A stretch of 64,000 nucleotides of DNA, from the NCBI RefSeq assembly GCF_013167455.1, contig NZ_CP038328.1; one strand, given 5' to 3'. Below are positions 3,797-12,617 of this stretch, piece by piece. The stretch is from Escherichia coli O157:H7 (GTDB lineage Bacteria; Pseudomonadota; Gammaproteobacteria; Enterobacterales; Enterobacteriaceae). The position numbers and the translations under genes were made by a program. Position 1 is the first letter of the stretch, and every line of letters begins with the position of its first letter. The notes under the pieces are model-generated. The model made no database searches. It had not been told where the DNA came from and saw nothing but the letters and a program-made list of their open reading frames with translations.

Positions 3797-3894
3797 GCCG
3801 GATGCGGCGTAAACGCTTTGTCCGGCCCACAAAAGCACGTAAATTCAATATATTGCTGAAATAACGTAGGCCTGATAAGCGTAGCGCATCAGGC
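3797..3894. repeat. REP/BIME-type extragenic palindromic repeats (two units)
   Basis: gccggatgcggcgtaaacgctttgtccggcc and taggcctgataagcgtagcgcatcaggca match the E. coli REP family. Confidence 0.8.
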
Positions 3895-3909: not shown

Positions 3910-4257
3910 TCACTTCTTCTTGTTCATCATCGCTTTCAGGTCAGCGAATGGGTTGTACTTCGCTTCACCGACATCTTTCTGCGCATCTTCCCCTGCGATA
4001 ACGGTCGTACCATACTGATCCGCTTCGGTATATTTCGAATGCTCATGATCGTGGCAATAGAGACAAAGCAATTCCCAGTTACTGCCATCTTCCGGGTTAT
4101 TGGTATGGTCGTGATCAATGTGGTGAACGGTAAGTTCACGCAGGTTGGAATAAACAAACTCGCGGGAACAGCGACCGCAGACCCACGGATAGATTTTTAA
4201 TGCTTTTTCGCGATAGCCGCTTTCTAACCGCGCATAGTTTTTTGGGATGATAGCCAT
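3910..4257 (-). CDS. yajD: HNH nuclease-family protein YajD
   Basis: 115 aa; His/Cys-rich HNH-like motif (HHIDHDHTNN...CLYCHDHEH); synteny next to tsx. Confidence 0.85.
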   Translation of the reverse strand: MAIIPKNYARLESGYREKALKIYPWVCGRCSREFVYSNLRELTVHHIDHDHTNNPEDGSNWELLCLYCHDHEHSKYTEADQYGTTVIAGEDAQKDVGEAKYNPFADLKAMMNKKK

Positions 4258-4344
4258 GAAAAGTTACCTGGATGAAATGTAGGGTTACGCGCAGTTTCCC
4301 AAGATGCGGGGATTTTCGCAATCCTGAGTCAAGAAATTCTCACA

Positions 4345-4626
4345 TTACCAGTGACGGCGAGGTTCCATCAACTGATGAAGAATGCGCGCAATGAGAATGT
4401 CATCGACTCTTATAACGTAATAAACAGTGTGAAACCTAAATGCGATCTTCTTTACCTCTGGAATCGCATCATAGTCTTGCCCTATCTCGGGCATTTGAGA
4501 GAGTGTATCCAGAAAAGTGCCGAGAGAGTCGGTATAGCGATCCGCCTGCTCATCACCAAACTTTCCCAGCGTGTAGTCATAGATCCCTCTGAAATCTTCA
4601 ACAGCTTTTCCGCTAAGCTTATACAC
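4345..4626 (-). CDS. ParE/RelE-superfamily toxin (type II TA toxin)
   Basis: Small basic protein ending ...YYVIRVDDILIARILHQLMEPRRHW, typical of ParE C-termini; likely start is GTG at 4624-4626 (MYKLSGKAVEDF...), 2 nt after the antitoxin stop; the track's longer ORF begins at 4659. Confidence 0.7.
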   Translation of the reverse strand: MYKLSGKAVEDFRGIYDYTLGKFGDEQADRYTDSLGTFLDTLSQMPEIGQDYDAIPEVKKIAFRFHTVYYVIRVDDILIARILHQLMEPRRHW

Positions 4627-4861
4627 GATGTTTTTGCTTCCTTTCTGCTGCGATATCACGAAGCGTCATCGAACTTTCACCGCTCTCAAGACCTTCAATA
4701 ACAGCATTTCTGACAGCTTCATCCCTGGATTCTTGTTGTTCCAATAGACGAAGTGCCGAACGCATTACTTCACTGGCCGAGCCATAACGACCAGACTGGA
4801 CCATCCGGGTAATAAAACTATCTAATTGTTCGCCAACGCTTACTGAGGTAATTTTGCGCAT
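4619..4861 (-). CDS. ParD-like ribbon-helix-helix antitoxin
   Basis: 80 aa; motif GRYGSASEVMRSALRLLEQ typical of ParD/COG3609 antitoxins; directly upstream of the ParE-like ORF. Confidence 0.7.
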   Translation of the reverse strand: MRKITSVSVGEQLDSFITRMVQSGRYGSASEVMRSALRLLEQQESRDEAVRNAVIEGLESGESSMTLRDIAAERKQKHRV

Positions 4862-4875
4862 AAGCGATCTCCACG

Positions 4876-4890
4876 TATTAACTATTAATA
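4876..4890. promoter_or_regulatory. inverted repeat TATTAA-cta-TTAATA upstream of the ParD-like gene (candidate autorepression operator)
   Basis: Perfect 6-bp arms next to a TATACT -10-like hexamer on the coding strand; RHH antitoxins typically bind palindromes in their own promoter. Confidence 0.35.
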
Positions 4891-4951
4891 CAAAGTATAT
4901 GTCAGAACGCTTTCTACAACCAAACCGTATTCAGTTGCCTGTGAAACAGGC

Positions 4952-4989
4952 AAAAAAAAACCGCAGCGCAAATACGCCACGGTTTTTTT
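4952..4989 (-). terminator. rho-independent terminator downstream of secF
   Basis: A9 - ccgcagcg/cgccacgg stem (with G-U wobbles) - T7; reads as stem plus U-tract on the minus strand. Confidence 0.6.
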
Positions 4990-5012
4990 AACAGAACGGA
5001 TTTAAAACACCA

Positions 5013-5984
5013 TTACGGCAGAATTGACGGCTGATCCGCCCCTTCTTTTTCCACTTTCTGCTGCAACATGTGTTCGCGCTTCATACCCAGTTTCAGAGCC
5101 AACGCAGATGCCACATAGATGGAAGATGCAGTACCGATGGAAACACCGATAAGCATGGTCAGCGAGAAGCCTTCCAGTACCGGACCACCGAAGAGATACA
5201 GCATCAGGATAACCATCAAGGTAGTACCGGATGTGATCAAGGTACGGTGCAGCGTCTGGGTCAAGGACACGTTAAAGATTTCGTAAGGCGTACCGCGACG
5301 GATCTTGCGGAAGTTTTCACGAATTCGGTCCGATACCACGATACTGTCGTTAAGCGAGTAACCGATAACCGACATCAACGATGCCACAATGGTCAGGTCA
5401 ATCTCGATATGGAATAACGACAAAATACCCAGCGTAATGATAACGTCGTGCGCCAGCGCAATAACCACCCCTGCCGCCAGTCGCCACTCAAAGCGGAAAC
5501 CTACGTACACGAGGATAGACAGCAGCGCTGCCATCAACGCCATCGCACCGGTTTGCGCAAGGTCTGCCCCCACGCTCGGACCGACGAACTCAATACGCTT
5601 CACTGCTGCATTCTGATTGGTGGATTCGTTAATCACCTTCAGAACCTGGCTGCCCAGCACCTGACCGCCGGTTTCGCCTTCAGCAGGCGGCATACGGACC
5701 ATGATGTCGTGGCTGCTACCAAAGTTTTGCAGCATCGGCTCTTCAAAACCGGCTTTTTGCAATGCATCACGCATTACGTCAATTTCAGCCGGTTTTTCGA
5801 GCGTAATTTCGATAACCGTACCACCGGTGAAATCCAGCCCCCAGTTAAAGCCGCGCACGCCCATAATAACGATAGCAGCGATTAACAGCAGACCAGAGAT
5901 GCCAAAAGCCCAGTAGTCCCAGCGCATAAAGTCATAGACTTTACGGCCGTGGTTTAGTTGTTCAACAGTATATTCCTGTGCCAC
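5013..5984 (-). CDS. secF: protein translocase subunit SecF
   Basis: GTG start giving (M)[28 protein letters not shown]...; 323 aa; follows secD. Confidence 0.95.
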
Positions 5985-11171: not shown

Positions 11172-12617
11172 CTATTTTTTAGCATTCGCATCCAGCGGGG
11201 CGGCATAACAACGGTAAGAAAAACATTCGCTGGAATGATTGGCGATATCTTTAAAGTTGCTTTCAGCAACCCCCTCGAACATGAGTACCGTTCTGGACAA
11301 CTCTCCGTTTTCATTTATATGTGGAAAATCAAATTGGCTACTGAATCGCCATACATCTGTCTTTTCTGGCTCGCTCTTCACAGAGATATGTCGATGGAGG
11401 ACCCCTCCTGTAAACGTGCGCCAGAACAATTGTTGATCAAAATCTTGTAATATCGCAGACTTGGATGCTATTTGACGTAGTAAACCTGCATACCGTGGAC
11501 TGCCATTACGAGCAACATTATGCAAACCCTGACTAAAAGCATCAAACAAACAATAGATGTGATCACTAGTGAAAAAAGGTCTTAATTTTTTTTGTTCTTC
11601 ATCGCTGTAATCCAGGAGCATCTCATTGATTTCTTCCGGTGAGAATTTTAAGACAAAATTATCCTCAGAATTTGTTTGTTTCTTGTTTTTTTCAATATTC
11701 TTCTCCTCAATGCTCTTCGCATTTTGTTTCGCAATTATTTCCGCAGTTTTTTTCGCAATTTCTTCCGCAATTTTTTCCCGAGTTATTGATTTTAGACTAA
11801 CACCATCGATGTCAACCGGTGTTGTTTTCAGATCTCTCTGCGCGTCTTCCAAATTTGTCTTATAGAGTTTGTGCAGTTTATCGGCAGATACGTATCCGGA
11901 TGAAGAAATCTGGTGTGTACGCATGGGGGGCTGTTCACAAAGCATCGAGGCTATATCGTCTTTAAACTCTTTTACATTAAAGTTCTCGGCTTTAACCTTC
12001 CTTGTTATAAACCCCGCATCGGCAATTTTCTTCTCTAATTGTTTTGTACGTTTAGAATAATAAGCGTTGTTATCATAAAACTTTTCAAGAAGGGCCCACT
12101 CCTCAAGTTGCCTTATGTGATTTTTCAACTGTTGATGATCTATTTTATATTCATGTGTACTAGAATCATTTTGGTTGCAGGAGTTACAGATTTTTAAGCA
12201 TAATTTTCCATCAGATTTATCATCTATGGTATCAGTGAAAATATAGGACACTTCAATACTCTGCCCGTTCTTATCAGTCATCTCATATGACCATTGTCCC
12301 GTTCGTTTCGCATTCTTAATGACTTCGATCGACTCTACAGGACAACCATGAAGAATGGGCAGAATTTTATCAGGATGCTTAATGAGTAAAATTATTATAT
12401 TTACAATGTTTGAAAAGAAATTTTTGCTATTTTTTATTTCATCGATTTTTTCCGCTGAAATGTTTACTAAGTTTTCATTTCCGGAAATGAAAAGCGATTT
12501 GCCATAGGTGCTTTTTTTAAATTGTTCTTCTGTTTTAGAAAAGACATCCTCTTTAAAAGGTGGCAACTCAGTACCAGTAATAAACGGTTTCAATAAATTC
12601 GAATTTGAAATTGTCAT
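11172..12617 (-). CDS. hypothetical protein, 481 aa, low-GC orphan gene (function unknown)
   Basis: Long ORF with a good SD (GGAG 7 nt before the ATG); AT-rich codon usage unlike its neighbours; Lys/Glu-rich coiled-coil-like internal repeat (AEEIAKKTAEIIAKQNAKSIEEKNIEKNKK); Cys/His-containing C-terminal region; no recognisable catalytic motif. Confidence 0.6.
   Translation of the reverse strand: MTISNSNLLKPFITGTELPPFKEDVFSKTEEQFKKSTYGKSLFISGNENLVNISAEKIDEIKNSKNFFSNIVNIIILLIKHPDKILPILHGCPVESIEVIKNAKRTGQWSYEMTDKNGQSIEVSYIFTDTIDDKSDGKLCLKICNSCNQNDSSTHEYKIDHQQLKNHIRQLEEWALLEKFYDNNAYYSKRTKQLEKKIADAGFITRKVKAENFNVKEFKDDIASMLCEQPPMRTHQISSSGYVSADKLHKLYKTNLEDAQRDLKTTPVDIDGVSLKSITREKIAEEIAKKTAEIIAKQNAKSIEEKNIEKNKKQTNSEDNFVLKFSPEEINEMLLDYSDEEQKKLRPFFTSDHIYCLFDAFSQGLHNVARNGSPRYAGLLRQIASKSAILQDFDQQLFWRTFTGGVLHRHISVKSEPEKTDVWRFSSQFDFPHINENGELSRTVLMFEGVAESNFKDIANHSSECFSYRCYAAPLDANAKK

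Follow-up and report, generated by a model that had tools for sequence, protein, structure and literature searches.

What fills the gap between secF and yajD in Escherichia coli O157:H7, which spans 755 bp (positions 4258-5012) in the 64,000-nucleotide (nt) stretch of contig NZ_CP038328.1 analyzed here (hereafter the window) and 128 bp in a K-12-like strain (L002)? An earlier sequence-only reading of this DNA, which put the two lengths at about 750 and 120 bp, proposed a ParD/ParE-like toxin-antitoxin module, and our analysis agrees with it on both points. With a probability of roughly 0.85, we regard the locus as a canonical two-gene type II ParD/ParE toxin-antitoxin operon, located on the chromosome between secF and yajD. 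Its two proteins match the profiles PF03693, TIGR02606 and PF05016, their closest solved relatives are ParD/ParE complexes and the NCBI annotation agrees; the profile searches assign one to the family of ParD antitoxins and the other to that of ParE toxins, and not to unrelated families outside toxin-antitoxin systems. The module, referred to below as parDE, is already known, as it is annotated in RefSeq, and it is an ordinary one. The genes and their immediate boundaries are arranged as follows:

4619-4861, minus strand: parD, ribbon-helix-helix (RHH) antitoxin of 80 amino acids (aa) with an ATG start (profiles, RefSeq WP_001226938.1)
4345-4626, minus strand: parE, ParE-class toxin of 93 aa with a GTG start (profile, model, RefSeq WP_000277484.1)
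4258-4344, minus strand: spacer of 87 nt from the parE stop to the yajD start, of which 4258-4323 is common to K-12 (alignment)
3910-4257, minus strand: yajD
5013-5015: secF stop codon of this minus-strand locus

The layout is that of a type II toxin-antitoxin system: the antitoxin gene comes first and is overlapped by the toxin gene, each of the two is small, and they have their own promoter, for which a -10 box can be proposed. A terminator upstream of parD separates the pair from secDF. The 80-aa RHH antitoxin and the GTG-started toxin of about 93 aa that the sequence-only reading had described correspond to the open reading frame (ORF) at 4619-4861, which starts with ATG and contains the motif GRYGSASEVMRSALRLLEQ, and to the RefSeq coding sequence at 4345-4626. 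The toxin does not start 2 nt after the antitoxin, as had been stated; instead, the genes overlap by 8 nt (GTGTATAA, 4619-4626), with the GTG of parE lying within the 3' end of parD. This overlap is kept in every relative examined, which suggests translational coupling of the two genes. Relatives on plasmids and on chromosomes share the whole layout, with an 80-aa ParD, the 8-nt overlap and a ParE of 93-94 aa. The program-made ORF list begins parE at an upstream GTG (104 aa), but we preferred the 93-aa form because RefSeq annotates it and because its start coincides in the alignment with that of 37 relatives, whose proteins open with M/VYKL.

In RefSeq, WP_001226938.1 and WP_000277484.1 (E. 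coli O157:H7 and O55:H7) are the same genes at the same secF-yajD site, entered automatically at the family level. NCBI annotates a ParD family antitoxin and a RelE/ParE family toxin in every listed genome whose gap is filled, and the RefSeq rows seen for parDE carry no pseudogene flags. A pangenome study (PMC12472240) also includes WP_000277484.1 among markers of the O157 serogroup, where it is called 'Toxin ParE4'.

ParD scores well above the curated cut-offs of both antitoxin profiles, with 80 bits against PF03693 (E = 1.7e-22, cut-off 21) and 95.7 bits against the NCBIfam model TIGR02606 (E = 1.2e-27, cut-off 46.2). By sequence, its closest solved relative is Vibrio cholerae ParD2 (7b22, E = 2.9e-19), to which residues 1-69 align without gaps. 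The protein is accordingly predicted to consist of an N-terminal RHH DNA-binding domain, with a GRYGSASEV core common to V. cholerae ParD2, and a C-terminal toxin-binding tail.

ParE matches PF05016 at E = 7.1e-15 and 55.8 bits (cut-off 23), with 88 of the 89 profile positions covered, while none of the NCBIfam toxin models matched it. Both PF05016 and the NCBI name 'RelE/ParE family toxin' span two activities, and ParE and RelE share a fold, so that the toxin might also be read as a RelE-like, ribosome-dependent mRNA endonuclease and not as a gyrase poison. Since PF05016 does not separate ParE from RelE, we built an AlphaFold model of the toxin from a 38-sequence alignment and searched the PDB with it using Foldseek. 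The model (predicted local distance difference test score 90.3) shows a beta-alpha-alpha-beta3 layout in which a long alpha1-alpha2 hairpin, typical of ParE, packs on a three-stranded sheet. The first 23 Foldseek matches are ParE-class toxins or close ParE homologues, among them PrpT, PfiT, ParE2 of PaaA2-ParE2 and M. tuberculosis ParE2. Template modeling (TM) scores reach 0.85-0.88 for the five best matches and for 7ycs, 8c24, 3kxe and 7r5a, against 0.47-0.69 for RelE, YoeB, HigB and YafQ, with the RNases RelE and YoeB at no more than 0.66. The model therefore assigns the toxin a ParE-type fold, nearer to ParE than to the RelE-type RNases. The significant PDB sequence matches are likewise all ParE-class toxins, and the partner is an RHH antitoxin of the ParD type. 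Together, these observations make a RelE-like activity highly improbable.

The closest solved sequence relatives of the toxin are PrpT of Pseudoalteromonas rubra (7ycs), ParE1 of Mycobacterium tuberculosis (8c24) and ParE1 of Caulobacter crescentus (3kxe), which match it at E-values of about 1e-7 to 1e-8, with TM scores of 0.86-0.88 and 28-32% identity. Each of them is paired with an RHH antitoxin of the ParD type, as in PrpA/PrpT and the ParDE1 systems of M. tuberculosis and C. crescentus; PrpA/PrpT is plasmid-borne, unlike the chromosomal parDE of E. coli. V. cholerae ParD2/ParE2 (7b22, 7r5a) resembles parDE in the core of its RHH antitoxin, in the fold of its toxin (TM 0.85) and in having the antitoxin gene first, although the similarity between the ParE sequences is weak (E = 5e-4). 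E. coli ParE keeps each of the 20 columns that are invariant in the alignment of the 38 subfamily members, including R81, I82, L83, H84, Q85, M87 and H92 of the C-terminal RILHQxM...H signature. Two apparently truncated toxin variants (P0026 and P0008) were set aside as sequencing artefacts, as secF and tsx are also fragmented in those assemblies.

Upstream of parD, we identified the following elements:

4894-4899, minus strand: probable -10 box of parDE, TATACT (aligned with relatives on the dyad below)
4874-4892, minus strand: probable ParD operator, a 19-bp dyad TGTATTAA-TAG-TTAATACg covering the expected transcription start (comparative)
4869-4872, minus strand: Shine-Dalgarno sequence GGAG, 7 nt before the parD ATG (read from the sequence)

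The sequence-only reading had drawn attention to a perfect palindrome, TATTAA-cta-TTAATA, in the putative promoter. The palindrome is present, but it is longer than reported, running as GTATTAA-cta-TTAATAC (7-3-7) from 4875 to 4891 and forming part of the 19-bp dyad. The dyad directly follows the TATACT box, and it occupies the same place in about 60 related loci. Position 4874 is G in the O157 allele, where 7 of the 8 arm pairs are symmetric, and A in five other E. coli alleles, which have a perfect 8-3-8 dyad. The site is unique in the window, with 0.10 occurrences expected by chance when two mismatches are allowed. A second candidate dyad, ATAC-ttt-GTAT, which overlaps the -10 box, was dropped, as relatives do not have it.

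We collected the DNA lying upstream of parD at 70 related loci, on plasmids, on other Enterobacterales chromosomes and in more distant Gammaproteobacteria. An 8-3-8 dyad of the form TGTrTkAA-nnn-TTmAyACA lies 9-21 nt before the parD ATG in about 60 of the 70, and a hexamer resembling a -10 box (TATCAT, TATAAT, TACACT or similar) directly precedes it in nearly all of them. Across 39 distinct sequences, 89% of the arm cells are symmetric, as compared to 22-50% when the arms are slid. The arms vary together with the antitoxin. All six loci whose ParD begins with MRKITS, namely E. coli (two alleles), two Xenorhabdus species, Enterobacter cancerogenus and Pantoea rodasii, have TGTATTAA arms, while in 58 of the 63 loci with an xRTTS ParD, arm position 4 is G and pairs with C at position 16 (TGTGT[T/G]AA). 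The outer GT...AC bases show no variation. Binding to operators is established for RHH antitoxins, and the arm sequence here tracks the residues of the DNA-reading strand of ParD; on this comparative evidence, we read the dyad as probably an autoregulatory ParD operator.

The same palindrome could instead work at the RNA level, folding into a hairpin in the leader of parDE that controls stability or translation, in place of a protein operator. Lying at or just past the predicted transcription start, it would be transcribed, and several relatives show G-T 'wobble' asymmetries (9 cells) of a kind tolerated in RNA. An RNA hairpin would not require the arms to follow the N-terminal beta-strand of ParD (RKITS with TGTAT, xRTTS with TGTGT), however, and the invariant outer bases are not freely covarying. 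RHH antitoxins are moreover known to bind operators (PMC10776004), and we consider this explanation very unlikely. Experiments on V. cholerae ParDE2 have demonstrated an RHH ParD that binds an operator upstream of parD, with repression that is ratio-dependent (PMC10776004). That operator comprises three GGTA / GTA[C/T] boxes bound in a 6:2 complex (PMC10776004), whereas E. coli parDE has a single 19-bp 8-3-8 dyad.

Between secF and the promoter, RNA folding revealed two structures:

4952-4989, minus strand: intrinsic secF terminator, with an A-tract, a GC-rich hairpin CCGUGGCG/CGCUGCGG and nine U (RNA fold)
4935-4953, minus strand: second small hairpin UGCCUGUUUCACAGGCA (RNA fold)

The region 4930-5015 folds at -33.1 kcal/mol (z = -5.7), a value that none of 200 shuffles equalled. 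A strong terminator of A-tract, hairpin and U-tract thus stands upstream of the palindrome, as the sequence-only reading had it. It begins about 25 nt past the secF stop, contains the inverted repeat I1 (4954-4968 / 4975-4989), is specific to the allele bearing the toxin-antitoxin genes and is conserved among the E. coli alleles. A simple consensus terminator scan of 4200-5100 gave nothing, and the structure was recovered by folding. Among the E. coli alleles, no stretch varies more than the smaller hairpin, which CE10-type alleles have in rewritten form; we therefore consider it probably dispensable.

We then compared filled and empty alleles of the gap, the alignment of which delimits the DNA that differs:

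4324-5011, minus strand: variable segment carrying parDE, 688 bp in place of a 61-bp intergenic stretch of K-12 type (filled and empty alleles aligned)

The two kinds of allele are alike up to 4323 and again from 5012, which sets the junctions at 4323/4324 and 5011/5012. The replaced 61 bp include the K-12 secF terminator and show no homology to the 688-bp segment (89 of 500 shuffles score as well). The earlier description of an accessory insertion is therefore apt as to 'accessory' and loose as to 'insertion', since 688 bp with their own secF terminator replace 61 non-homologous bp. We found neither terminal direct or inverted repeats nor target-site duplications at the 4324 and 5011 junctions, and the segment holds no ORF with a mobility domain besides parDE. 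A transposon, insertion sequence or integron cassette as the vehicle was rejected on the absence of junction repeats, of a mobility-domain ORF and of homology between the inserts of the two alleles. By its setting in a gap between core genes, parDE differs from V. cholerae ParDE2, which resides in a superintegron.

A comparison of this junction across E. coli genomes, as the sequence-only reading had proposed, found parDE in 424 of 5426 complete genomes (~8%), always at the one site between secF and yajD. The identity is at least 99% in 312 matching records, which include the O157:H7 and O55:H7 strains listed, and 95-99% in 114 records of other lineages, including CE10 at 95.9%. Comparison of six E. 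coli alleles over parD and parE together gave 11 synonymous changes and 2 non-synonymous ones, and both genes are hence under purifying selection. The ParD protein is the same in all six, the 6 variable sites of parD being synonymous throughout; parE has 7 variable sites, of which 5 are synonymous and 2 are conservative replacements (D25E and T37I, both O157-specific). The alleles diverge by 1-2%, matching the flanking secF. Judged by this divergence, the polymorphism is as old as that of the neighboring core genes and not a recent acquisition.

In E. coli DA33137 (L004:3541-4710), the secF-yajD gap lacks parDE and holds two IS200C transposase genes, so that the site takes different mobile DNA. 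This fits the published view that toxin-antitoxin modules occupy plastic intergenic sites (PMC7167474).

Outside E. coli, the toxin by itself gave no close relative when 100,044 species genomes were scanned, and a rescan with the subfamily alignment returned 80 loci, the best at 59% identity. Neither search found parDE in the representatives of other Escherichia species. With a best match of 59% and no other Escherichia carrier, these searches pointed to no donor or ancestral state. The nearest ParE proteins outside E. coli are 55-65% identical. Homologous parDE genes were seen at unrelated intergenic positions, beside colicin- and microcin-like genes in Yersinia ruckeri (L017:1-939) and between genes for a peptidase S13 and an Obg-family GTPase in Xenorhabdus doucetiae (L018).

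A plasmid paralogue (WP_000124732.1 / WP_000277490.1) is carried by 49 plasmids of Enterobacterales, where it adjoins repA and parA-parG. It belongs to the same subfamily and shares with the chromosomal module an 80-aa ParD (75% identity), the 8-nt overlap, a ParE of 94 aa (57% identity) and a 19-bp dyad after the -10 box. Unlike that of parDE, its promoter, at the corresponding place, is a strong one of consensus type (TTGACA, 17 nt, TATCAT); the dyad arms and ParD also differ, reading TGTGTT and ARTTSVTIG, as opposed to TGTATT and RKITSVSVG on the chromosome. It also lies in a plasmid-maintenance context, whereas parDE lies between core genes. The numbers of matching records and of matching genomes were both 451, which means that chromosomal module and plasmid paralogue were never seen together in one genome; given about 25 plasmid carriers, about 2 such genomes would be expected, and the difference is not significant.

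O157:H7 prophages carry another family of three-component systems, PaaR-PaaA-ParE (5cw7, 5czf), which has the host lineage and a ParE-fold toxin (TM 0.80) in common with parDE. Their toxins are only 18-20% identical to E. coli ParE, and they pair a PaaA antitoxin with a separate PaaR regulator in cryptic prophages (PMC7167474). Membership in these systems was rejected, as parDE has two genes only, an RHH ParD antitoxin and secF and yajD as neighbors, with no prophage. ParDE-I of IncI/IncF plasmids (PMC6614396) was likewise discarded as a close relative, for it belongs to a different, YacA/YacB-type family.

The sequence-only reading had also suggested a possible part in stress response or in phage defense. 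Type II toxin-antitoxin modules have generally been tied to phage defense (PMC7167474), and parDE is accessory and lineage-restricted, as an abortive-infection system might be. We found no support for this defense role: PADLOC-DB 2.0 models match neither ParD nor ParE (E <= 0.01), a collection of 50,697 phage records contains no homologue, the neighbors are core housekeeping genes and not a defense island, and the relatives that adjoin plasmid replication and partition genes point to maintenance. An anti-phage function thus appears quite unlikely.

By analogy with characterized ParDE systems, from which we infer toxicity, gyrase as the target, repression and biological role, the operon would work as follows. 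Transcription would start from a weak sigma-70 promoter (-10 box TATACT, 4894-4899) just past the dedicated secF terminator, and translation of parE would be coupled to that of parD through the GTGTATAA overlap. ParD dimers would occupy the 19-bp dyad (4874-4892), which covers the expected transcription start, and keep the operon repressed, while the C-terminal tail of ParD would wrap around ParE and neutralize it. Free ParE would poison DNA gyrase. The most likely role for such an operon would be that of a selfishly maintained, addiction-type module.

Several points weigh against this picture. The first concerns the toxin: Leu86 (codon at 4369-4371), within the C-terminal LHQQM motif, occupies a column that is at least 90% Gln in the 38-member alignment. 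The C-terminal region of ParE is linked to toxicity, so that the potency of the protein is perhaps reduced, and Leu86 could be a modifier of it. To our knowledge, gyrase inhibition has not been demonstrated for every ParE homologue. The covariation of the dyad is modest, as its 10 doubly changed cells were reached by 7 of 500 shuffles and the sequences are phylogenetically non-independent, and the dyad could form a hairpin in the 5' untranslated region of parDE. A strict consensus scan of 4200-5100 recovered no complete promoter, which the poor -35 box explains. Finally, full-text searches of the literature, using locus tag, accession and keywords, yielded no functional study of the locus, and Fraikin et al. 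2020 tabulate TAfinder predictions for EDL933, with the unvalidated ones marked (PMC7167474).

A rival reading is that the toxin may be attenuated or inactive, and the module kept mainly for ParD, as a regulator or as an antidote to the related plasmid-borne ParE. The replacement of a nearly invariant Gln by Leu86 speaks for a weakened toxin. An antidote role would draw on the 75% identity of the two ParD proteins, with a well-conserved toxin-binding C-terminal half, on the presence of the paralogue beside repA and parA-parG in its 49 plasmids, and on the anti-addiction documented for chromosomal ccd and ataRT (PMC7167474). Purifying selection on parE is, however, as strong as on parD (5 synonymous versus 2 conservative non-synonymous changes), the invariant residues of the subfamily are all kept, and pseudogene flags are absent from the RefSeq rows seen. 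Leu86 is common to all E. coli alleles and hence old and tolerated. We consider this rival reading as a whole unlikely. A more specific proposal is that chromosomal parDE is an anti-addiction device against the plasmid paralogue, in which ParD neutralizes the plasmid ParE and the two copies are regulated independently. Such independence would follow from the switch of both the DNA-reading residues (RKITS versus ARTTS) and the arms (TGTATT versus TGTGTT); as an account of the locus, we find the proposal doubtful, and keep the ParD/ParE addiction-type operon as our preferred reading.

A lesser variant, put beside the anti-addiction proposal, involves the gene downstream. No terminator-like structure was detected in the parE-yajD spacer (fold z = -0.42, 61 of 200 shuffles as good), so that transcriptional read-through from parDE into yajD is possible, and derepression of parDE may be passed on to this HNH nuclease gene. 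YajD itself hits the NCBIfam model for the YajD HNH nuclease (E = 5e-63). Weak similarity extends to the HNH part of the Zorya ZorE models in PADLOC (E = 4e-7) and of IscB (E = 2.5e-4), a likeness that probably reflects a shared domain only. Between tsx and yajD, at about 3869-3893, lies a palindrome resembling repetitive extragenic palindromic sequences, GCCTGATAAGCGTAGCGCATCAGGC.

Two other places in the window hold ORFs of interest. A 481-aa ORF at 11172-12617 (minus strand), between malZ and acpH, is a 'hypothetical protein' (WP_000155946.1) in O157:H7 AC-5 and presumably lies outside the K-12 gene order. Between ppnP and rdgC, at 28009-30743 (minus strand), a 762-aa ORF (a 759-aa DUF2773 protein in O157:H7 AC-5) is followed by a 149-aa ORF that overlaps it, and this block may be another accessory or lineage-variable one. 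Over the whole window (1-64000), no match to an Rfam family attained the gathering score, and a scan with ARAGORN was negative for tRNA and tmRNA genes.

For the biology of E. coli, parDE adds one to the lineage-restricted chromosomal ParDE modules; it can serve as a marker of the O157:H7/O55:H7 lineage and is of little wider import. It nevertheless offers a clean natural example of a toxin-antitoxin module in a plastic gap between core genes, kept as a long-standing polymorphism under purifying selection. For the subfamily, the loci suggest a simple operator code, in which two variants of the ParD beta-strand are paired with two variants of the dyad. Should gyrase prove to be the target of the toxin, carriage of parDE could bear on the responses of O157 strains to quinolones.

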